Shown: positions 3,733-57,238, counted from the stretch's first letter. The stretch: 64,000 bases of DNA from Candidatus Cohnella colombiensis (GCA_029203125.1 CP119317.1:1704261-1768260), one strand, 5' to 3'. The notes: a model not told the origin generated them from the letters alone. Program-made: numbers and translations.

Positions 3733-3954
3733 ATGATGTACTTTTTAATGATCGTCGGTATTGTCGTCATTATTTACGCAGCCATACTCTCCGTCGTCAT
3801 GGTGCAAAAGCGACAAAATAAAGTAATCGATCAGGGTGTAAGCGAACAAACGGTGAAGAACCCGATTATAGGGAATCCCATTACGTATCTATATATCGGT
3901 ATTCCAATCTTAGCTGTTATCGGCGGCTTGATTTGGTGGTATTACAAACCTTAA
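3733..3954 (+). CDS. small two-TM membrane protein, hypothetical
   Basis: 73-aa ORF with two hydrophobic helices. Sits 17 nt upstream of the next ORF on the same strand. Confidence 0.45.
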   Translation: MMYFLMIVGIVVIIYAAILSVVMVQKRQNKVIDQGVSEQTVKNPIIGNPITYLYIGIPILAVIGGLIWWYYKP

Positions 3955-4279: not shown

Positions 4280-4902
4280 CGGATAACCCTTTTTGTTCGC
4301 AAATAAGCGTACAAGCTCATTAAAGCAAAGCCACTAATTGCTCCGCCAACATGCGCAGATATGCTAATATTCGGGACAATAACTGAGTAGATCAACCCAA
4401 AGATGAGCGTAATATAGATCGTCTTTCGCGTACTTTCATCGATTGCAAATCTACGGAAGATAGCCAAGTATAGGTAAGCACCGAATAAGCCGTAGATTGC
4501 ACCTGATGCTCCGACAGAAGGGTAAACCTCACCTGAATACACAATTACACTAAAGACGTTCGCGAATACTCCCGAAACGAGGTAAAACAGAAGGTAGCGA
4601 GCGTGACCGAACAATCTTTCGAGAGGAGGGGCGAATATGACAATTGCAAAAGTATTGAACAACAAGTGGTCAAAGCTTCCATGTAACGTAATTGAGGTCA
4701 CATAACGCCATGGCTCATCTAGTCCATAGTCGTTATAAAACGATTGTGCATAAAACAAACCCCAATAAGTGATTTGCTTATCTAGAAATAAAAAATCTAC
4801 TGCAAACAGTACAATATTCAGGGCTATGATGCACGACGTAATCGGATAATATTTGAGATAGCCTTTGAACGTTTCATTACGTAAAAACAACATGAAATTC
4901 AC
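4276..4902 (-). CDS. rhomboid-family intramembrane serine protease
   Basis: Multi-TM protein with GASGAIYG (GxSG catalytic Ser) and a downstream SAHVGG (catalytic His). Confidence 0.85.
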   Translation of the reverse strand: MNFMLFLRNETFKGYLKYYPITSCIIALNIVLFAVDFLFLDKQITYWGLFYAQSFYNDYGLDEPWRYVTSITLHGSFDHLLFNTFAIVIFAPPLERLFGHARYLLFYLVSGVFANVFSVIVYSGEVYPSVGASGAIYGLFGAYLYLAIFRRFAIDESTRKTIYITLIFGLIYSVIVPNISISAHVGGAISGFALMSLYAYLRTKRVIR

Positions 4903-47420: not shown

Positions 47421-47843
47421 TTATTTACCTTCTTGAACGAACTTCTCTATACGTTCTTTGATGGCATCACGAACCGCGCGGAATTGTTCCATAATTTCTT
47501 CTTCAGTACCTGTTGCTTTAGCAGGATCGTCGAATCCCCAGTGCCATTTAATGACGTTAGGGTTAGAGATCACTGGACAGTGCTCATCGGCGTGCCCACA
47601 CAACGTGATCACGTATGTTGCCCGATTCAGGATCTCCGGATCGATGACGTTCGATGTGTTATTAGAGATATCTACACCGGCTTCGGACATGACTTTAACC
47701 GCGCGAGGATTCAACCCATGGGCTTCTAATCCAGCGCTTTGCACTTCATAGAGGTGACCGCCTATCTCATTCATAAATCCATCCGCCATCTGACTCCGAC
47801 AAGAATTGCCTGTACATAAGAAATACACGAGTTTTTTATCCAC
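47421..47843 (-). CDS. arsC: arsenate reductase, thioredoxin-coupled LMW-PTP type
   Basis: CTGNSCRS P-loop and a downstream Cys pair ([10 protein letters not shown]); 140 aa. Last gene of the ars operon. Confidence 0.92.
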
Positions 47844-47873
47844 GATTGAAAGTCTCCTTTAAATTTAGCGTAA

Positions 47874-49166
47874 CTAGCCGATGAATTTTAACCAGAAGTA
47901 GAGGCCCGTGAGCGTAAGGAACAGCACAGGAATAGTTAGAACAATTCCTATTTTGAAGTAGTAACCCCAAGTGATTTTGACACCCTTAGAAGATAACACA
48001 TGAAGCCAGAGCAATGTGGCTAATGATCCAATCGGTGTGAGCTTTGGTCCCAAATCAGATCCAATGACATTGGCATAAATAAATGCTTCTCGGACTATGC
48101 CGGTTGCATCTGTTCCTTGAATGGCCAGCGCATCAATCATAACTGTAGGCATATTGTTCATGATAGAAGAGAGGATAGCTGCAATAAAACCAGAACCAAC
48201 CGTAGCAACGAAGAGTCCTTGATCTCCTACCCATTCGAACACTTTACCGAGTTGATCGGTAAGCCCGACATTGCGTAAGCCGTAAACGACAACATACATA
48301 CCGATAGAAAATACAACAACTGCCCAAGGTGCTCCTTTTACAAGCTTCCAAGTGTGAATTTCCTTGCTTTGTCTAGCGAGAAAAAGAAATGCAATCGCTA
48401 CAACACCCGCAATAATGGACACTGGAACATTGGTAATTTCGCTTGAAAGGTAAGCAATCAGAAGTACCGCTAAGATGACCCAAGAAATCCGAAATAGTCG
48501 AACATCTTTAATGGCTTCACTTGGCTTTTTCAACTGAGTCAGGTCATAGTTCTTTGGAATACTTTTACGGAACATGAGATATAAGACCAATAAGCTTGAA
48601 GCAATAGCAAAGAGTGTAGGCACAATCATCCGACTGGCGTATTCCACAAATCCGATATCGAAAAAGTCGGAGGATACAATGTTAACTAGATTACTCACCA
48701 CGAGTGGAAGGGAAGCCGTATCTGAAATGAATCCACTCGCCATGATGAATGGCAAAATCATTCTTTGGTCAAACTTTAAAGCTCTTACCATGGCGAGGAC
48801 AATGGGGGTTAAAATCAATGCTGCTCCGTCATTGGCGAAGAAAGCCACTACAGCTGCTCCAAGTAAAATGACATAAACAAACATCAAATTTCCGTTACCT
48901 CTCGCAAATCGGGCCATATGAAGAGCTGCCCATTCAAAGAATCCTATCTCATCTAGAATAAGAGATATTAATATGATGGCAACAAAGGCCAACGTAGCGT
49001 TCCAAACAATCTGAGTGACATCCCAAACATCGTCAAAGTTAACGACCCCGACAAGGAGAGCAAGGATTGCGCCACCGCATGCTGACCAACCAATGTTAAG
49101 TCCTTTAGGCTGCCAGATAACAAATACGAGAGTTACTAAAAAAATGAGTGAAGCGATCGTTAACAT
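47874..49166 (-). CDS. arsB: arsenite/antimonite efflux pump ArsB
   Basis: 430 aa, 12 TM helices. Colinear with E. coli ArsB as I remember it ([45 protein letters not shown]). Confidence 0.92.
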
Positions 49167-49179
49167 AAATCCTCCAGGT

Positions 49180-49494
49180 TCAGTCGCAGCTTTGTGAGCT
49201 TAATGCGTTTATTCTATCTTTCATTGAAGGGAGATGCGCAAGGATTTCATTTAAATAGGGCTTGTCATCAAAATTCAATGAATAATAAACCCACTGCCGA
49301 CGCTTGGTTTCGTTAATAAGGCCACCCGTTTTAAGTTTCTTTAAGTGCTGACTGACGTTAGGCTGTGTAGTATCCAAGATCTGGACAATGTCACAAACAC
49401 ACATTTCTTGTTCTTTAAGTAGGGCAAGGATGGTCAATCTACTCTTGTCGGAGAGGAGTTTAAGGGATTCCAGCATTTCGTCGACATTGGTCAT
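49180..49494 (-). CDS. arsR: arsenic-responsive repressor ArsR
   Basis: wHTH with an EMCVCDI As(III)-binding motif. First gene of arsRBC. Confidence 0.9.
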
Positions 49495-51051: not shown

Positions 51052-51378
51052 TTAACTTCTAGGTGCCCAAAGCATGATTGAAACACCGACAACGCAAACA
51101 GCGGCACCAATCCAGTCGTATAGATCAGGAGTTCTTTTATCGACCAGCCATCCCCATAAAACGGCCAGAACTACGAATACACCGCCATATGCAGCATAGA
51201 CCCTACCGAAAGAGGGGAAGCTCTGCCAAGTTGGGATAATTCCATACAGGATCAGAGTAGCACCACCTACAATTCCATACCAGAAGGGCTTTGATTCTCT
51301 CAGCCAAAGCCAAACTAGATAACCCCCACCAATTTCAGCTATTCCTGCGATTATGAAAATTATAATCGATAATAACAA
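51052..51378 (-). CDS. ynfA: YnfA family (UPF0060) small membrane protein
   Basis: 108 aa, four TM helices. Shares GRVYAAYGGV and LYDW.GA with E. coli YnfA. TTG start lies 8 nt after AAGGAG. Confidence 0.88.
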   Translation of the reverse strand: MLLSIIIFIIAGIAEIGGGYLVWLWLRESKPFWYGIVGGATLILYGIIPTWQSFPSFGRVYAAYGGVFVVLAVLWGWLVDKRTPDLYDWIGAAVCVVGVSIMLWAPRS

Positions 51379-51394
51379 TTGTATTTCTCCTTTT

Positions 51395-51790
51395 CTAAGT
51401 ACAAGTACCCGTATTCTTTATTTTTGTCGCGCATTCTGACCAAGTAAGACACTTACAGCTTAAGCCATCATCTAGTATTTGAATCATAGAATTGATCTGC
51501 TTTTTTCTCTCCTCAAGCTCAGTGCGTTTATTTCGGGCCATTTGTTCCCAATTCACTGATGTAGGCATCGTTTCGAATCCTTCGAGAAGTACCAAGATTT
51601 CTTGTATCGTAAAGCCAGTTTGCTGTGCAATCTTAATGAAATTGATTCGTTCTACCTGGCTTTCGGCATAACGACGTTGACCTTTTTTTCTCTCAGGAGA
51701 GGGAAGTAATCCTGCAGTTTCGTAAAATCGAATCGCGGATGCATTAATTCCAACTAGAGCTGCTAGTTGCCCAATACTAAGACTTGTCAA
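51395..51790 (-). CDS. MerR-family regulator, SoxR-like (partial Fe-S Cys motif)
   Basis: HTH ..IGQLAALVGINASAIRFYETAGLLPSPERKKGQRRY..FIKIAQQTGF.. resembles SoxR. The C-terminus has C-K-C-LTWSE-C (CxCx5C) plus one distal Cys. TTG start follows GAGGTG. Confidence 0.75.
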   Translation of the reverse strand: MTSLSIGQLAALVGINASAIRFYETAGLLPSPERKKGQRRYAESQVERINFIKIAQQTGFTIQEILVLLEGFETMPTSVNWEQMARNKRTELEERKKQINSMIQILDDGLSCKCLTWSECATKIKNTGTCT

Positions 51791-51805
51791 AGTTAATCAC
51801 CTCTG

Positions 51806-51836
51806 TTGACTTAAAGTTAACTTGAAGTATTATAAT
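51806..51836 (+). promoter_or_regulatory. MerR-type promoter with a 19-bp spacer containing a soxbox-like palindrome
   Basis: TTGACT (51806-51811), a 19-bp spacer, then TATAAT (51831-51836). The palindrome CTTAAAGTT|AACTTGAAG (51810-51827) has one mismatch. Confidence 0.8.
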
Positions 51837-51860
51837 CAAAATTATACGAGGGAGGAGGTA

Positions 51861-52109
51861 ATGAAGCAAATGAAAAGAGGAATTGCTGTTCTTGGAATTC
51901 TAGGAGCGTGTGCGCTCTGTTGTGCTATACCCTTGATTGGAGGGGCAGCCGTATTAGGTATTTCTTCTTTCTTTTTGAATCCGTTGGTCATCGCAATATT
52001 GGTTCTTTCCTTTATTATTGCAGGAATCGTAATTTATAAGCCACGTAAAGTAACTGGTTCTTCTTGCATGAAATCAGGATGCAACTGTAACTCCTGCTCG
52101 AAAGGGTAA
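51861..52109 (+). CDS. 82-aa two-TM cysteine-rich membrane protein (MerF/MerT-like CC-xx-P motif)
   Basis: MKQMKRGIAVLGILGACALCCAIPLIGG.. with a tail SSCMKSGCNCNSCSKG. A GGGAGGAGG RBS (51849-51857) favours ATG 51861 over the ORF-track start at 51822. Confidence 0.6.
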   Translation: MKQMKRGIAVLGILGACALCCAIPLIGGAAVLGISSFFLNPLVIAILVLSFIIAGIVIYKPRKVTGSSCMKSGCNCNSCSKG

Positions 52110-52124
52110 CTGATTGTTATACAC

Positions 52125-52880
52125 ATGATGTCAAAAATCGCACCTATAAACGACTACTTTTTGATAACTGCTCATGAACATTTTTCTCGGCTTCATCGGC
52201 TATTTAATTCACAGAATGAAAAGGGGAAAGAAAGGGTTGGGTTGGCACTATTGAAGAAAATATGGCTTTTCACGGTCTATGCGATTGCTGCATGGTTATT
52301 GATTATAAATCGGAAACCCCTTATCGGTTGGATGGAGTCAGAATCGTATTGGCAACAGAATATTCTAATCGTGCTGATCGGCCTGATTATTGCCATTGTT
52401 CCGGCTATACCCTATGGCCTGATGGCAGCTGTATTGGGGGCTAAATTCGGGCCGGTAACCGGAACAATTCTGAATGTTTTCATCTCAGCCGGGGCAGCTA
52501 TGATTCTATTTTTGCTCATTCGTCATACTTTTTCAGCAGAAGGAAGGGCACGGGCGGCCAAGATGAAAGGAATTCGTTATTTGACGGATTACACAGAACG
52601 AAATGCTTTTTTTTCTATCTTTTTTGCTCGAACAATTCCAATTGTGCCTGCCCAAGCGGTCAACATCTTTGCCGCAGTAACCCAGATTTCATGGGTTCCG
52701 TATTTACTCGCAACCGTTCTGGGCAAAATCCCATTTATCGTCATGGTGACATTGTTGGGAGATCGCTTTTTTCAGAATGCGGATCTTGGACAAATGATGA
52801 TAATAACAGGACCCTATGGAATTTTCATTATGCTTGTATTTGCTGGATATCGATTTTTTCAAAAATACCAATCGCGTTGA
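52125..52880 (+). CDS. TVP38/TMEM64 (VTT domain, DedA-related) membrane protein
   Basis: Multi-TM protein with the ..FFARTIPIVPAQAVNIFAAVT.. VTT-domain pattern. The start is uncertain, since the N-terminal 40 aa are hydrophilic. Confidence 0.7.
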   Translation: MMSKIAPINDYFLITAHEHFSRLHRLFNSQNEKGKERVGLALLKKIWLFTVYAIAAWLLIINRKPLIGWMESESYWQQNILIVLIGLIIAIVPAIPYGLMAAVLGAKFGPVTGTILNVFISAGAAMILFLLIRHTFSAEGRARAAKMKGIRYLTDYTERNAFFSIFFARTIPIVPAQAVNIFAAVTQISWVPYLLATVLGKIPFIVMVTLLGDRFFQNADLGQMMIITGPYGIFIMLVFAGYRFFQKYQSR

Positions 52881-53001: not shown

Positions 53002-53538
53002 ATGAAGAAGAAAACCTGGTTAACCATCATAATGATCGTTGCATTGATTGCGTCGGGTTTAATTATTATAAACTTCGATAAAACTAAACCGAACTATGCC
53101 AACATTAAACAAATCGTTAATGATTATAGTACTGGTAAAATAACAAATGAGTCTGCGTCTATCACATCTCAACAACTCATTGTTACCAAGAATAATGGTA
53201 AGAAAACAACGTTTGAATTACCTGAGAATGAGTTTTTTGTTTCTATCGCGCCGTATATTGAAACAACGCATCCATGCGCGATTCACAGCTTAACGGGTTG
53301 TCGAGGTGAATTGATAGATAATGAGTTTGATATACAGATTAAGGATGACAACGGGCAAGTAATCAAGAATGAGAAAATTAAATCTCAATCAAATGGATTT
53401 ATTGATTTGTGGTTGCCACGCGATCAAACATATCACATCACAATTAAATATGATGGGAAAAAAGTTGAATCTCAGATTTCAACATTCAAGGAAGATAATA
53501 CTTGTATTACGACGATGCAGTTGGAAGAAACTATTTGA
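53002..53538 (+). CDS. CueP-family metal-binding protein (membrane-anchored or secreted)
   Basis: Signal-anchor, then FFVSIAPYIETTHPCAIHSLTGCRGEL.....GFIDLWLPR....DNTCITTMQL. This matches the three-Cys pattern I recall for CueP. Confidence 0.65.
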   Translation: MKKKTWLTIIMIVALIASGLIIINFDKTKPNYANIKQIVNDYSTGKITNESASITSQQLIVTKNNGKKTTFELPENEFFVSIAPYIETTHPCAIHSLTGCRGELIDNEFDIQIKDDNGQVIKNEKIKSQSNGFIDLWLPRDQTYHITIKYDGKKVESQISTFKEDNTCITTMQLEETI

Positions 53539-53895: not shown

Positions 53896-53969
53896 ATCAA
53901 TATTTTTTGATTAATGGATTGCAATGGAAACAAACGCATGGTAATATAAGTTAATCAAAATAAATTGAT
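53896..53969 (+). promoter_or_regulatory. two ATCAA-N6-TTGAT inverted repeats upstream of the second ArsR gene
   Basis: ATCAATATTTTTTGAT (53896-53911) and ATCAAAATAAATTGAT (53954-53969). The latter lies 24 nt before the ArsR start. Confidence 0.6.
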
Positions 53970-53992
53970 TTAAAAGAACGGAGGGAGTCGCT

Positions 53993-54340
53993 ATGATTCC
54001 AGAACAACCAGTAATAACGCAAGCCTCATCGCCAGTTGACTTCTCAAAATTTGAAGTGAAGTTTAAAGCTCTCTCTGACCAAAAACGACTTCAAATCATG
54101 TACTTACTTACACAACGAGGGAACACATGCGTATGCGATCTTTCCGAACTTATTGAAATGCCGCAATCAAAGCTTTCGTACCATTTAAAAATTTTACTCG
54201 ATGCAGAGCTCATCAAACGCGAAATTAGAGGCACATGGAGTTATTACGAACTGAATCAATTCGAAGTAAATAATCTGCTATCTCCTGAGCTTTGTTGCAT
54301 TTTTCGTAAAGATTCATATTCTTCAGGCGATTGCTGCTGA
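53993..54340 (+). CDS. ArsR/SmtB-family metalloregulator with CVCD and two C-terminal CC pairs
   Basis: ..GNTCVCDLSELIEMPQSKLSYHLKIL.. wHTH. The tail reads ..PELCCIFRKDSYSSGDCC-stop. GGAGGGAG RBS. Confidence 0.85.
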   Translation: MIPEQPVITQASSPVDFSKFEVKFKALSDQKRLQIMYLLTQRGNTCVCDLSELIEMPQSKLSYHLKILLDAELIKREIRGTWSYYELNQFEVNNLLSPELCCIFRKDSYSSGDCC

Positions 54341-54365
54341 AATGCAGCCTTCGTTAGTTTAATAA

Positions 54366-54381
54366 ATCAAAATATTTTGAT
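54366..54381 (+). promoter_or_regulatory. perfect 16-bp palindrome, third copy of the ATCAA-N6-TTGAT operator
   Basis: ATCAAAATATTTTGAT lies between the ArsR stop and the flavoprotein RBS. Confidence 0.6.
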
Positions 54382-54398
54382 ATATGGAGGATACAGTT

Positions 54399-55805
54399 AT
54401 GAGTGAATGTTGTAAGTCTTCGGTAAATATGCAAACTACCATACAGAACGCGTGCGGATGCGAAGTTCAGGTTTCATCTCCGTTAGATGAGAACAGAAGG
54501 TTACCTGTCGCCATTATCGGTGGTGGTCCAGTAGGACTAGCTGCTGCTGCCCACCTGGTAGCTAAGGGAGAATCATTTGTGCTCTTCGAGGCGGCAAGTC
54601 AAGTGGCGGGGAATATCCAACAATGGAGTCACGTTCGTCTCTTTTCTCCATGGCAGTATAACATTGATAAGGTAGCTAAGAAACTGCTTGAGATACATGG
54701 CTGGAAAGCACCCAAAGATACGGATCTCCCAACGGGGGATGAACTGGTGAAACAGTATCTTGATCCACTTTCTAAATTACCTCAAATTAAACCTTATGTG
54801 CACTATGACGCCAGGGTAGTCGACGTAGGACGTAAAGTTATAAACAAACTGAAAACAGCAGGTCGCGATAAGATGCCATTCGTATTGTATGTTGATAAGG
54901 CTGGTAAGCGACTCTCTTTCGAAGCAAAAGCCGTAATAGATGCTTCTGGAACTTGGTCCAGCCCAAATCCGGCCAATTCCGATGGGATTTGGACAGAAGA
55001 TGAACTTGCATTGAACAACAAAATCACTTATAGCATACCTGATGTTTTGGGAAATCAAAGAGAGCGATACGCCAATAAGAAAGTTCTTGTCGTCGGGAGT
55101 GGTCACTCCGCCATCAATGCCTTGCTTGATCTTGAACGTCTACAAGAGCAGGAACCGTCAACGAGCATATTTTGGATAATCCGGAAACCTCAAGTAGAAG
55201 ATGTATACGGCGGCAAAGAGAATGATAGTCTTCAGGAACGCGGGGCGCTTGGCATACGTCTTCAAAGGCTCGTGGAATCGGGTAAAGTAGAAGTACAGAC
55301 CTCTTTCAACATTCAGAGCTTCAAGAATAGTGGGGGACGGATCACAGTTATCGGCAGCAAGAATGGGGAAACTCTTCAAATCGAAGGCGTAGATGAAATA
55401 ATCAGTAATACAGGATCAAGACCAGATCTGAGTTTTCTAAGAGAAATCAGGATGGACATTGACCCAGCCTTAGAAAGTGTGAACGAACTCGGCCCACTTA
55501 TCGACCCCAATATCCACAGCTGTGGAACCGTACGGCCGCATGGAGAAAAGGAGTTGCGGCAGCCTGAAGCCAACTTTTATATCGTCGGATCTAAAAGCTA
55601 CGGCCGAGCGCCGACGTTCCTAATGGCTACGGGATACGAGCAAGTGCGTTCAATCGTTGCAGCGTTAACAGGTGACTGGGAAGCAGCAACGAATATCGAA
55701 TTGGATTTGCCGGAAACTGGAGTCTGCAGTGTCGATTTGCAAGATTGTTGCACAAGCGGAACACCTAACAATAACGTTGCCACGAAATCACAATGCTGCG
55801 GTTAG
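54399..55805 (+). CDS. NAD(P)/FAD-dependent two-dinucleotide-fold oxidoreductase (FMO/CzcO-like) with Cys-rich N- and C-terminal tails
   Basis: IIGGGPVG and VVGSGHSA Rossmann motifs, plus DASGTW and NTGSRPD. The N-terminus reads MSECCKSS..NACGCE and the C-terminus reads ..GVCSVDLQDCCTSG..KSQCCG-stop. A GGAGGA RBS lies 7 nt before ATG 54399. Confidence 0.75.
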   Translation: MSECCKSSVNMQTTIQNACGCEVQVSSPLDENRRLPVAIIGGGPVGLAAAAHLVAKGESFVLFEAASQVAGNIQQWSHVRLFSPWQYNIDKVAKKLLEIHGWKAPKDTDLPTGDELVKQYLDPLSKLPQIKPYVHYDARVVDVGRKVINKLKTAGRDKMPFVLYVDKAGKRLSFEAKAVIDASGTWSSPNPANSDGIWTEDELALNNKITYSIPDVLGNQRERYANKKVLVVGSGHSAINALLDLERLQEQEPSTSIFWIIRKPQVEDVYGGKENDSLQERGALGIRLQRLVESGKVEVQTSFNIQSFKNSGGRITVIGSKNGETLQIEGVDEIISNTGSRPDLSFLREIRMDIDPALESVNELGPLIDPNIHSCGTVRPHGEKELRQPEANFYIVGSKSYGRAPTFLMATGYEQVRSIVAALTGDWEAATNIELDLPETGVCSVDLQDCCTSGTPNNNVATKSQCCG

Positions 55806-57046
55806 GCCCACATCGTAATAGACAGAATGACAGCCGTCTTAAGCCAGTAATACTGATGGCACTAATAACGGCTGTCTCTTTATTTGGGGATTCTATGTTG
55901 TACATTGTATTGCCGATACATTGGAAAGAAGTCGGGTTGGTATCACTGGTTGAGGTAGGCATCCTTTTGTCTGCTAATCGATTCATCAGATTACCGCTGA
56001 ATCCCTTAATTTCAAAGTTGTACACCATTATGAATGTCCGTAAAGGCTTAACCCTTGCTATCCTAATTGCTGGGTCTACAACATTTTTATATGGATATGC
56101 TAAAGGCTTTACCTTTTGGCTAATCCTACGTTGTGTTTGGGGTTTGGCTTGGTCAATTATTCGACTGGGTTCTAATTATTTGATTCTTGATTTATCAGAT
56201 AATAATAATAATCGGGGATATTTGATGGGGACTTACAATGGGCTCTCAAAAATCGGCACCCTAGTCGGGATGTTTGCTGGTGGAATATTCGTTGAATGGT
56301 ATGGTATTAAGGTCGTAGCTTCTGTTTTTGGAATTGCAACATTTATGATATTACCTGTTATTGCACTTATTCCACGATCTAATAATCAAGCTGCAATTGT
56401 GCGGACTTCACTATTTACCTTACCTTTATTAAAGTTGCCAAAACTTCCAATGATGCTGTTAACCGTATTTCTCGTCATGTTTTATTTAGATAGTATGGTA
56501 ACGGCAACATTAAGCCATTTGATTGATATTCGACACCCCAACACTATTCTTTTTGGCATTGCAATAGGTGCAACTACTGTTGCCGGAATTCTTCAAGCGT
56601 TTCGTATATTATGTTCAACTTTCTTATCTCCTTGGATCGGGAAAAAATCGGATGGAAGAGGACAGAGAATAATTTACTTAATATTGGCTCTATTTCTTTC
56701 ATCTACATTCTTATCCATCGTACAATTTGATCTTCCCATATATATTTGGCTTACTTTTTTGCTTGCACTTTTACTTACATCTTCTGTTCTCATAGTTATT
56801 ATGGATGCATATATTACGGACGTCATTGAAGGTAAGATGAGAACAGCCGCCGTGACGACATTTGTAATTGTATCTGATATCGGAGTAGCTTTCGGTCCAG
56901 TGTTGGGTTTTATATCTGAACGATCATATGGGATTTCAACCACCTACACAATCTCAACAACAGTTTTACTTCTATTATCTATTTTATGGGGAATTGAATG
57001 GCTGAGAATGAGATCTAAATCGTTAGCATATTCGAAATCGATATAA
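55793..57046 (+). CDS. MFS transporter
   Basis: About 12 TM helices. ATG 55793 overlaps the flavoprotein stop by 13 nt. An alternative start is ATG 55856. Markedly AT-rich. Confidence 0.75.
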   Translation: MLRLGPHRNRQNDSRLKPVILMALITAVSLFGDSMLYIVLPIHWKEVGLVSLVEVGILLSANRFIRLPLNPLISKLYTIMNVRKGLTLAILIAGSTTFLYGYAKGFTFWLILRCVWGLAWSIIRLGSNYLILDLSDNNNNRGYLMGTYNGLSKIGTLVGMFAGGIFVEWYGIKVVASVFGIATFMILPVIALIPRSNNQAAIVRTSLFTLPLLKLPKLPMMLLTVFLVMFYLDSMVTATLSHLIDIRHPNTILFGIAIGATTVAGILQAFRILCSTFLSPWIGKKSDGRGQRIIYLILALFLSSTFLSIVQFDLPIYIWLTFLLALLLTSSVLIVIMDAYITDVIEGKMRTAAVTTFVIVSDIGVAFGPVLGFISERSYGISTTYTISTTVLLLLSILWGIEWLRMRSKSLAYSKSI

Positions 57047-57167
57047 ACAAAACGCTATCTTGGTGGGTCCAGGAATGTAGTCGGAAAAGGAGGGATCGCA
57101 CACGCATACTTATGAATATGGGGCTCTCGTTCCAATATCTCCGTCAAATATCACTGACTGTAATAGT

Positions 57168-57238
57168 CAGCAATTATTGTGTACACTTGAATCAGGAAGC
57201 GATTTAGCTTGAAAAAGGCGAACAAATTTATCCTTCAT
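57168..57238 (+). pseudogene. internally deleted second copy of the ydeI-like gene (leader fused to the last ~10 codons)
   Basis: 57168-57206 matches 49681-49719 at 38 of 39 positions. It is followed immediately by GCTTGAAAAAGGCGAACAAATTTATCC, which is similar to 50274-50300 (GCTTGAAAAAGGTGAAAAAATATATCC). Confidence 0.8.

Follow-up and report, generated by a model that had tools for sequence, protein, structure and literature searches.

An arsR-arsV-mfs operon with a triplicated predicted ArsR operator in Candidatus Cohnella colombiensis, a probable ArsV-type arsenic and antimony resistance module

The 64,000-nucleotide (nt) stretch of Candidatus Cohnella colombiensis DNA analyzed here (GCA_029203125.1 CP119317.1:1704261-1768260, hereafter the window) carries at positions 53896-57046 three adjacent genes encoding an ArsR/SmtB repressor, a Cys-tailed flavoprotein and a major facilitator superfamily (MFS) transporter. 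The arrangement, arsR-arsV-mfs, is a genuine three-gene operon and probably an accessory arsenic (As) and antimony (Sb) resistance module of a described kind, and it likely belongs with the ArsV-type organoarsenical and antimonite oxidation and efflux systems of ars islands. The flavoprotein family itself is very probably the published ArsV, a strong inference drawn from genomic context, the pattern of the associated MarR regulators, the product name and an Ensifer adhaerens homologue. Carrying this reading are the observed operon structure, the conservation of the operators and of the Cys tails, and the linkage to ars genes. A first-pass annotation of the same sequence had proposed an undescribed system; this part of it does not stand, since members of the flavoprotein family sit within ars clusters in many phyla and the target of the MarR_ars repressor is already known as arsV.

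The arsR gene (53993-54340, + strand) encodes a 115-amino-acid (aa) ArsR/SmtB repressor assigned by Pfam and NCBIfam. The ArsV-type flavoprotein gene (54399-55805, +) specifies a 468-aa product recognized through Pfam, homologues and motifs, and the transporter gene (55793-57046, +) a 417-aa protein matched by MFS_1 (87.8 bits) and belonging to an MFS lineage other than ArsK. The likely flavoprotein start is the ATG at 54399, supported by a GGAGG element 8 nt upstream and by homologues that begin MSECC. The transporter open reading frame (ORF) begins at 55793, so that its first 13 nt overlap the end of the flavoprotein gene (stop at 55805), indicating translational coupling, and this start is supported by the conservation among homologues of the residues that precede the next ATG. 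A terminator-like hairpin (57154-57170, +), found by consensus scan only, lies about 108 nt past the MFS stop and putatively marks the operon end; the count of such hairpins in the region is not above chance, making it weak evidence. The features listed in the first-pass annotation, comprising an ArsR with CVCD and two C-terminal CC pairs, a 468-aa two-Rossmann flavoprotein with Cys-rich tails and no CxxxxC, a transporter ORF overlapping the flavoprotein stop, and three ATCAA-N6-TTGAT repeats (two before the regulator, plus a perfect palindrome at 54366-54381), were all recovered, the repeats by exact pattern match.

Genomic context ties the flavoprotein to arsenic. Neighboring genes were clustered and annotated in 80 genomes from at least eight phyla, and a tblastn panel that covered 5 kb around the flavoprotein gene supplied the counts. 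The commonest neighbor is arsC, and 49 of the 80 genomes carry arsC, arsB, acr3, arsA, arsK or arsN1 within this distance, while an ars gene or an ArsR/MarR_ars regulator is present at 57 of the 80 loci. ArsR occurs in 39, MarR_ars in 20, ArsK in 19 and an MFS of the window type in 11. The recurrent partners are LMWP-type ArsC, ArsB, Acr3, ArsA, ArsD, GNAT/ArsN1, aquaglyceroporin, ArsR, MarR and two MFS families; mer, cad, ter and sulfur-oxidation genes are not recurrent among the neighbors in these genomes. In the closest relatives (loci L085 and L086), the ArsR-flavoprotein pair stands back-to-back with arsRBC in divergent orientation with nothing between, and in the window about 4.5 kb of other metal genes separate arsRBC from arsR-arsV-mfs. 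Plasmids display further combinations: ArsR-flavoprotein-67-aa ORF-ArsO-like-ArsN1 in B. cereus; MFS-ArsO-like-MarR-flavoprotein beside ArsN1, trxB and arsRBC in P. urinalis; aioSR-aioBA-cytC-moeA followed by GNAT-ArsR-flavoprotein-ArsK on two Ensifer adhaerens plasmids; ArsR-flavoprotein-MFS beside arsJ-gapdh in a Paracoccaceae plasmid; and a divergent ArsR followed by flavoprotein-MFS-ArsO-like in Rhodococcus. The two contextual marks of ArsV, residence in an ars or aio/ars cluster and an As/Sb-responsive repressor, are thus seen in the 49 ars-linked genomes, the Cys signature of the MarR regulators and the Ensifer island.

The first description of ArsV reportedly concerned the arsenic island of Ensifer adhaerens ST2. 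The sole flavoprotein in about 19 kb of an E. adhaerens plasmid ars/aio island is a member of the present family, and the E. adhaerens homologue beside arsK shares 48% identity with the window flavoprotein over 440 residues (E = 9e-144). Secondary sources describe ArsV as a flavin monooxygenase oxidizing methylarsenite (MAs(III)), roxarsone(III) (Rox(III)) and Sb(III), and state that ArsW extrudes methylarsenate (MAs(V)) and that ArsK and ArsW export methylarsenicals. In Achromobacter sp. As-55, the As(III)/Sb(III)-responsive repressor MarR_ars, with Cys36, Cys37 and Cys157, controls the adjacent arsV (Yu et al., bioRxiv 10.1101/2021.08.12.456183), and MarR_ars is also found upstream of arsV in Paenibacillus and other genera (bioRxiv 10.1101/2021.08.12.456183). 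The MarR proteins encoded directly upstream of the flavoprotein family combine an N-terminal CC with a C-terminal Cys or CC, matching the AdMarR_ars signature. The mutagenic oligonucleotide for AdMarR_ars C36S encodes RDRDRI(C->S)CYD, and the MarR proteins of loci L046 and L073 carry the matching FRDRDxICCHD. The arsV gene of Achromobacter As-55 (HLG70_07515), located between marR and the aio cluster (beside aioR) and annotated 'FAD-dependent oxidoreductase', is induced by As(III) and Sb(III) (PMC11719878 supplement). The Prokaryotic Genome Annotation Pipeline (PGAP) gives members of the flavoprotein family the same name, and labels ArsO-like proteins 'NAD(P)/FAD-dependent oxidoreductase'. A recent survey found arsV in only 1 metagenome-assembled genome.

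The flavoprotein displays the motifs IIGGGPVG (Rossmann fold for flavin adenine dinucleotide, FAD), VVGSGHSA (NAD(P)H Rossmann fold), DASGTW and NTGSRPD. Its best Pfam match is Pyr_redox_3 (58 bits, cut-off 30), with Pyr_redox_2 at 39.7 bits (cut-off 26.1), and Pfam, the GGGPVG/GSGHSA motifs and the fold agree in identifying a flavoprotein with two dinucleotide-binding domains for FAD and NAD(P)H, as in ArsV. Its ten cysteines lie at positions 4, 5, 19, 21, 375, 443, 450, 451, 466 and 467 only, and CxxxxC and CxxC are therefore absent. The N-terminal tail contains CC and CGC, and the C-terminal tail two CC pairs. Cys375 (IHSCGT) and Cys443 (LPETGVC) show no variation among 121 sequences, nor in a 51-sequence alignment. 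Of the sequences bearing PETGVC, 115 of 119 from Bacillota and 108 of 108 from Proteobacteria have a C-terminal CC after that motif, making the Cys tails a family hallmark, and the proposal of the first-pass annotation survives its own test that homologues should keep them. The N-terminal CC, found in 82 of 120 Bacillota sequences versus 1 of 120 from Proteobacteria, is a Bacillota feature. No account of the role of the tails in this family was found in the literature.

Homologues are abundant, with more than 8000 word-sharing matches and 723 representative clusters (50% identity) at E <= 1e-30, and members sharing 47-64% identity with the window protein are spread over Bacillota, Bacteroidota, Chloroflexota, Proteobacteria, Actinomycetota, Acidobacteriota, Gemmatimonadota and Cyanobacteriota. 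Neither Pfam nor NCBIfam holds a specific model for the family, and genome labels are generic ('FAD-dependent oxidoreductase', 'thioredoxin reductase', 'glutamate synthase'), so surveys undercount it. Several members (P0242, P0244, P0245, P0252, P0268 and P0197) bear N-terminal extensions of 90-250 residues. In P0197 (598 aa) an ArsR-type HTH_20 domain is fused to the flavoprotein, supporting a functional link between regulator and enzyme.

Named enzymes of related build were considered and set aside. ArsO was rejected at 55.3 bits against the NF040505 cut-off of 425, with alignment to model positions 3-183 only (of 346). The protein likewise fits neither YpdA, thioredoxin reductase (TrxR) nor any other curated NCBIfam equivalog. 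A MerA or class I reductase identity fails on the lack of CxxxxC, HMA and Pyr_redox_dim, the C-terminal CC being the sole MerA-like trait. Of the family placements raised earlier (COG2072/CzcO/ArsO-like or other), the ArsO option is thus discarded, and context favors an ArsV-type protein instead.

The window ArsR exceeds the cut-offs of Pfam HTH_5 (61.5 bits against 22) and NCBIfam NF033788 (88.7 against 55), and this winged-helix domain together with its thiolate site motif places it in the ArsR/SmtB family. Its cysteines form an alpha-3 CVCD motif (Cys47/49), a pair in LSPELCCIFR (Cys100/101) and a terminal DCC pair (Cys114/115). Both CVCDL and LSPELCCIFR are kept across the ArsR orthologues of Cohnella, Paenibacillus and B. 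cereus, and the terminal DCC is confined to Paenibacillaceae among the flavoprotein-paired ArsRs compared. These regulators vary by clade, those of Ensifer and Roseibium having no CVC and carrying DECCAD-x-C, which we take to be the C-terminal As(III) site of the A. ferrooxidans type. In the literature (PMC6514093), vicinal cysteines at 101-102 serve as the ArsR signature for MAs(III) binding, and the corresponding window pair lies at 100/101. As a candidate BigR/SqrR persulfide sensor, the protein reached only 26.3 bits on the BigR equivalog against a cut-off of 155, its BigR, TsoR and CmtR scores all falling far under their cut-offs, and no blh, sqr or other sulfur genes were found in the flavoprotein neighborhoods of the 80 genomes. 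Trivalent As and Sb species would be the parsimonious inducers.

Three copies of the dyad ATCAA-N6-TTGAT accompany the operon. Operator O1 (53896-53911, ATCAATATTTTTTGAT) is an exact pattern match ending 8 nt before the -35 element, O2 (53954-53969, ATCAAAATAAATTGAT) begins 7 nt after the -10 and spans the expected transcription start, and O3 (54366-54381, ATCAAAATATTTTGAT) is a perfect palindrome 4 nt 5' of the flavoprotein ribosome-binding site (RBS). The putative sigma-A promoter (53919-53947, +) comprises a -35 TTGCAA (53919-53924), a 17-nt spacer and an extended -10 TGgTAATAT (53939-53947); it matches the consensus at 8 of 12 positions, under the threshold of the consensus scan, and was read from the sequence. 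O1 and O2 bracket the -35 and -10 elements in classical repressor geometry. The 64-kb window contains exactly 3 copies (at 53896, 53954 and 54366) versus 0.27 expected by chance, all within 486 bp of one operon. Allowing one mismatch yielded no additional site in the window, versus 6.65 expected. The search for a wider regulon was likewise negative throughout the window, arsRBC included, even at one mismatch, and arsRBC is presumably under its own ArsR, given the absence of the operator there.

Protein-level identity of the window to a metagenome-assembled genome of Candidatus Cohnella colombiensis is 100%. For comparison, orthologous loci were taken from Cohnella yongneupensis, C. luojiensis, Paenibacillus elgii and two metagenome contigs, and a five-genome promoter alignment was built from the window, the three named species and one metagenome contig. 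The dyads recur at equivalent positions in four relatives (L085, L086, L088 and L002), each of which has one more directly 5' of the flavoprotein RBS. A conserved promoter flanked by two exact dyads is retained in the Cohnella and metagenome loci, with an O1-O2 start-to-start distance of 58 nt in the window, L085 and L086. In P. elgii the promoter-distal dyad is exact and the proximal one is one base off (ATTAA for ATCAA). Across the five genomes, the half-sites, the -35 TTG and the extended -10 (TG-n-TA..AT) are invariant, whereas spacers and flanks vary. In L085 and L088, each small ORF inserted between arsR and the flavoprotein gene carries its own dyad. Since sequence and position are conserved in four relatives while the flanking DNA diverges, the dyads are not a chance occurrence, and all three are predicted to be genuine ArsR operators, in keeping with the first-pass proposal.

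That the palindromes are instead AT-rich sequence kept by common descent, or sites for another factor, is very unlikely. The sites are indeed AT-rich and lie in AT-rich intergenic DNA, 1 of 100 shuffles of the window likewise attained three matches, and the operator reading is made from sequence alone. However, the confinement of all three to one operon, the invariance of half-sites amid variable surroundings, the added dyads ahead of each added small ORF and the repressor geometry all speak for ArsR operators, as does the AT-rich TCAA-N-TTGA dyad, which presumably resembles the cad/czr operators of ArsR/SmtB proteins. A second promoter within the operon, at O3, was considered, as a TTGAAT-like -35 precedes O3 in three relatives. 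It was rejected because transcription from the corresponding -10 would begin within the RBS or beyond it; a different role is favored, and O3 probably serves as a roadblock or looping partner. With its clear definition, the palindromic ArsR operator could find use in biosensor design.

The transporter forms its own clade with Paenibacillaceae, Bacillaceae and Bacteroidota sequences. An ArsK identity was rejected, as no NF033733 match appeared at E <= 0.1 (cut-off 400 bits) and BLASTP against ArsK gave E = 1.3, while Ensifer ArsK scored 515 bits on NF033733. Members of this clade are encoded just after the flavoprotein gene in C. luojiensis (63% identity), Peribacillus, Ureibacillus, P. urinalis and many Bacteroidota. 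In a reciprocal metagenome scan, the flavoprotein lay directly upstream of 5 of the 6 MFS homologues with at least 50% identity. At 35-45% identity, linkage to ars genes is seen only sometimes. Consistent linkage to the flavoprotein is thus confined to the close homologues, and membership in the broad MFS family does not by itself mark arsenic. In Ensifer, Neotabrizicola and Rhodococcus, the MFS encoded after the flavoprotein is ArsK-related (29-36% identity) and unrelated to the window type, so that the flavoprotein is coupled to at least two independent MFS lineages, and this recruitment of unrelated transporters argues that oxidation and efflux are functionally coupled. As to the survey of the trio suggested in the first-pass annotation, C. 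luojiensis carries the same ArsR-flavoprotein-MFS trio; in the 80 genomes, the window-type MFS is found in 11, and ArsK takes the place after the flavoprotein gene in 19. At L086:5398-5706, the flavoprotein gene is followed by a 102-aa ORF, a truncated window-type MFS whose first ~65 residues align, and in L085 the MFS gene is absent after the flavoprotein. The remnant shows that the transporter has decayed recently in a close relative, and with the absence in L085 it indicates that the trio is ancestral in the clade and decaying in some lines.

In the mechanism proposed for the module, ArsR dimers would occupy O1, O2 and O3 when no metalloid is present, with O1 and O2 flanking the promoter. 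As(III), Sb(III) or methylarsenite, the most likely effectors, would bind the ArsR thiols (CVC and/or the C-terminal pairs) and release the repressor. The flavoprotein would then act as an NAD(P)H/FAD/O2-dependent monooxygenase, converting toxic trivalent organoarsenicals and antimonite into far less toxic pentavalent forms, and its flexible Cys-rich tails, with Cys375 and Cys443, probably take up the thiophilic substrate and bring it to the flavin. The pump, an MFS protein translated together with the enzyme, would export the product or leftover substrate. The monooxygenase chemistry, the export roles of ArsK and ArsW and the As/Sb-responsive repression are carried over from the literature by analogy; we infer the inducer range, the roles of the tails and of O3, and the MFS substrate.

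A more specific suggestion for the tails, tentative and on balance doubtful, is that they are built-in ArsD-like 'swinging-arm' chaperones binding trivalent As or Sb through vicinal thiols and passing it to an active site of Cys375/Cys443 by the flavin, and that the Bacillota range may differ from that of the proteobacterial ArsV. The Bacillota version is distinguished by the extra N-terminal CC tail, an ArsR with matching CC pairs, operator-controlled CCxCC micropeptides in relatives and a non-ArsK MFS. If the suggestion were true, MerA-like substrate delivery would have evolved independently in a class-B-type monooxygenase, and the Bacillota substrates may be Sb(III) or arsenic-containing antibiotics, given the frequent arsN1 neighbors.

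Several findings weigh against assignment of the operon to an ArsV-type As/Sb module. In 23 of the 80 genomes, no ars gene or ArsR/MarR_ars regulator was found within 5 kb. The ArsV name is absent among the flavoprotein homologue matches and the clusters of Ensifer proteins, and the likeness to ArsV runs through proxies, namely the E. adhaerens plasmid homologue and the PGAP name shared with Achromobacter arsV. The window MFS is unrelated to ArsK, its more distant relatives being mostly without ars linkage, and the closest solved relatives of the window ArsR are CadC-like Cd/Pb sensors. The AlphaFold model of the flavoprotein has a mean predicted local distance difference test (pLDDT) score of 73.7 and a confident core, with pLDDT <50 at residues 1-29, 346-388 and 439-468; with the conserved 346-388 loop and both tails so placed, the modeled position of the cysteines relative to the flavin is of low confidence. 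The best fold neighbor is a disulfide reductase and not a monooxygenase, namely the bacillithiol disulfide reductase YpdA/Bdr (7a76; E = 1e-19, TM-score 0.79 on target), and the others are TrxR-like ferredoxin-NADP reductases (FNRs), thioredoxin reductases, class B N-hydroxylating monooxygenases and flavin-containing monooxygenases (FMOs). Judged on this predicted structure, the fold by itself does not separate a reductase from a monooxygenase.

These matches, headed by YpdA/Bdr, the TrxR-like FNRs and the thioredoxin reductases, lend some weight to the idea that the flavoprotein is a thiol/disulfide NAD(P)H reductase, with Cys375/Cys443 and/or the tail pairs as dithiol, and not a monooxygenase. 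Such an enzyme would reduce arsenate, As-thiol adducts or a low-molecular-weight thiol disulfide ('ArsT-like', aiding ArsC), leaving the MFS to export As(III). YpdA is also the second-best NCBIfam match, two cysteines are invariant, arsC is the commonest neighbor, and the C-terminal vicinal Cys tail is like those of MerA and high-molecular-weight TrxR, which shuttle substrate or electrons via C-terminal vicinal cysteines on a flexible tail. The idea is nevertheless improbable, as the literature gives the MarR_ars-controlled 'FAD-dependent oxidoreductase' an oxidase role on MAs(III), Rox(III) and Sb(III), class B monooxygenases (DfoA, SidA, PvdA, FMO) fit the fold nearly as well, Pfam ranks Pyr_redox_3 and Lys_Orn_oxgnase-type models for the family, CxxC and CxxxxC are lacking, and several clusters already hold a separate canonical trxB. 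A module devoted to another soft ligand, such as Hg(II), Cd(II), tellurite, selenite or persulfides, with the ars linkage reflecting general metal-island clustering, is very unlikely. It could appeal to the mixed metal island between arsRBC and the operon (MerR/SoxR-like regulator, YnfA, CC-motif membrane protein, DedA and CueP), to the CadC-type structures nearest the window ArsR with its weak BigR and TsoR matches, and to the established ability of vicinal Cys pairs to bind Hg and Cd as well. Against it, the cross-phylum neighbors are specifically ars and MarR_ars genes, with mer, cad, ter and sulfur-oxidation genes not recurrent, the closest relatives place the pair directly beside arsRBC, and BigR, TsoR and CmtR scores far below cut-offs join the lack of HMA/NmerA and CxxxxC.

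An ArsV-type As/Sb module thus remains the preferred reading, and the interpretive claims of the first-pass annotation, which pointed in the right functional direction, sort accordingly. Its soft, thiophilic ligand is borne out in that the ars linkage points to a metalloid, and its exclusion of a MerA/Lpd-type enzyme agrees with the missing CxxxxC, HMA and dimerization domain. The suggested oxygenase and MFS exporter roles would fit published ArsV with ArsK or ArsW by analogy. A mercury, cadmium or reactive-sulfur system, also entertained there, is unlikely, since no mer, cad or sulfur-oxidation genes recur nearby.

The remainder of the region is rich in metal genes. A canonical arsR-arsB-arsC operon (47421-49494, - strand; NCBIfam) lies 4.5 kb upstream of arsR-arsV-mfs and consists of arsR (49180-49494), arsB (47874-49166; TIGR00935, 729 bits, cut-off 415) and a thioredoxin-type arsC (47421-47843; TIGR02691, 197.8 bits, cut-off 174), all on the - strand. 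Between the two operons, YnfA (51052-51378, -) and a MerR/SoxR-like regulator (51395-51790, -) are divergent from a Cys-rich 95-aa membrane protein (51822-52109) and a following VTT/DedA protein (52125-52880). The 95-aa protein bears CALCCAIP within a transmembrane helix and a CMKSGCNCNSC tail, and matched no Pfam or NCBIfam family. The 51052-52880 segment may form a small soft-metal module of its own. Directly upstream of the operon lies the gene for a CueP-family periplasmic copper-binding protein (53002-53538; NF038094, 192 bits). CueP, the MerR/SoxR-like regulator, YnfA, DedA and the Cys-rich protein together mark the region between arsRBC and arsR-arsV as a mixed metal-resistance island.

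Small ORFs ending in CCxCC occur between arsR and the flavoprotein gene in two Cohnella relatives, at L085:3738-3938 and L088 ~3866-3925, with none in the window. The L085 ORF (66 aa) ends in ..QPCCNCC, the L088 ORF (19 aa) reads MGLLNPFVSEIAETCCSCC, and each has its own predicted ArsR operator and RBS; they may be metalloid-binding micropeptides. A conserved 64-79-aa ORF (cluster 'u71'; L081:7457-7660, L008, L009, L011, L012, L017 and L027) is located directly 3' of the flavoprotein gene in several Bacillaceae and Planococcaceae and directly 5' in L027. It carries the motif ..L(S/K)K(E/D)YF(I/V)(S/A)Y(L/I)(K/R)L.. and matches no Pfam or NCBIfam family. A 93-aa protein with GCCG and a terminal ..TSC is encoded between arsA and the flavoprotein gene in L023 and L027 (Lysinibacillus; 4288-4825) and in L008 (2539-2820), within arsR-acr3-arsC-arsD-arsA clusters. 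This arrangement resembles the arsRYCDAT-orf7-orf8 operon of Bacillus sp. CDB3 (PMC4562236), whose arsT may belong to the flavoprotein family.

Two lineages display other surroundings of the flavoprotein. In the Bacteroidota loci L006, L016, L025, L031, L035 and L069, flavoprotein-MFS is followed by an ECF-type sigma-70 factor with no adjacent ArsR or MarR, which suggests another regulatory solution. In the Chloroflexota loci L033, L036, L041, L044 and L048, a conserved ars-free neighborhood comprises a pyridoxal phosphate (PLP)-dependent decarboxylase, an Na/H exchanger with TrkA domains, a DinB/MST-like protein and a class-I glutamine amidotransferase. No alternative functional theme was found among these neighbors, and the arrangement may reflect synteny within the lineage, or else the family may have a second functional setting.

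Methylarsenite and aromatic trivalent arsenicals are natural and man-made antibiotics, and the enzymes that oxidize them shape arsenic toxicity in soils and rice paddies. The combination of HSCGT, PETGVC and the CC tail provides a clear diagnostic signature for the flavoprotein family. What stays mildly new is the non-ArsK MFS partner, the triple ArsR operator, the family-wide Cys-rich tails and the lack of a curated family model; for the specialist, the value lies in useful housekeeping rather than surprise.

Among characterized regulators, the window ArsR shares an alpha-3 CVC motif with R773 ArsR, as CVCD without the third Cys of the R773 site. Its 100/101 pair is comparable to the C-terminal Cys95/96/102 of A. 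ferrooxidans ArsR and the Cys101/102 of the MAs(III)-selective S. putrefaciens ArsR. It therefore joins both motif types and adds a third C-terminal pair, and unlike these three it is nearest to CadC-like proteins among solved structures.

YpdA/Bdr is a housekeeping enzyme not known to be linked to ars genes. Its structures (PDB 7a76, 7a7b) are the best neighbors of the window core, and its NCBIfam match is weak (42.8 bits against a cut-off of 340). At ~325 aa and ~20% identity it is ~140 residues shorter than the window protein, which adds the 346-388 loop and the Cys tails. MerA shares with the window flavoprotein the use of FAD and NAD(P)H, vicinal cysteines on a flexible C-terminal tail and an extra N-terminal Cys segment, but the window protein is devoid of CxxxxC, HMA/NmerA and Pyr_redox_dim, MerA is not among its fold neighbors, and its neighborhoods are without mer. 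ArsO, a putative flavin-binding monooxygenase of Streptomyces pHZ227 (NF040505), is likewise a two-Rossmann NAD(P)H flavoprotein of ars clusters, and ArsO-like genes often share clusters with the window family. ArsO is nevertheless ~346 aa long, and the window protein reaches only 55 bits over the N-terminal half, whereas true ArsO-like neighbors score 262-270 bits.

Closest of all in layout are the systems built around ArsV. For ArsK (As(III)/Sb(III)/MAs(III)/Rox(III) efflux) and ArsW (MAs(V) efflux), the MFS gene stands immediately 3' of the flavoprotein gene and is probably co-translated, as in the window. The Paracoccaceae MFS in the ArsW-like position is ArsK-related (30% identity) and not of the window type. 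Compared with ArsV, the window protein has a Bacillota-specific N-terminal CC tail, its regulator is a CVC-plus-CC ArsR rather than MarR_ars or the CC..C-type ArsR of Ensifer, and its MFS partner comes from another lineage. Like the ArsV proteins of Ensifer adhaerens ST2, Paracoccus sp. SY and Achromobacter sp. As-55, it represents a flavoprotein of ars or aio/ars islands, and the window repeats their layout of a gene repressed by ArsR or MarR_ars and followed by an MFS exporter (ArsK or ArsW).

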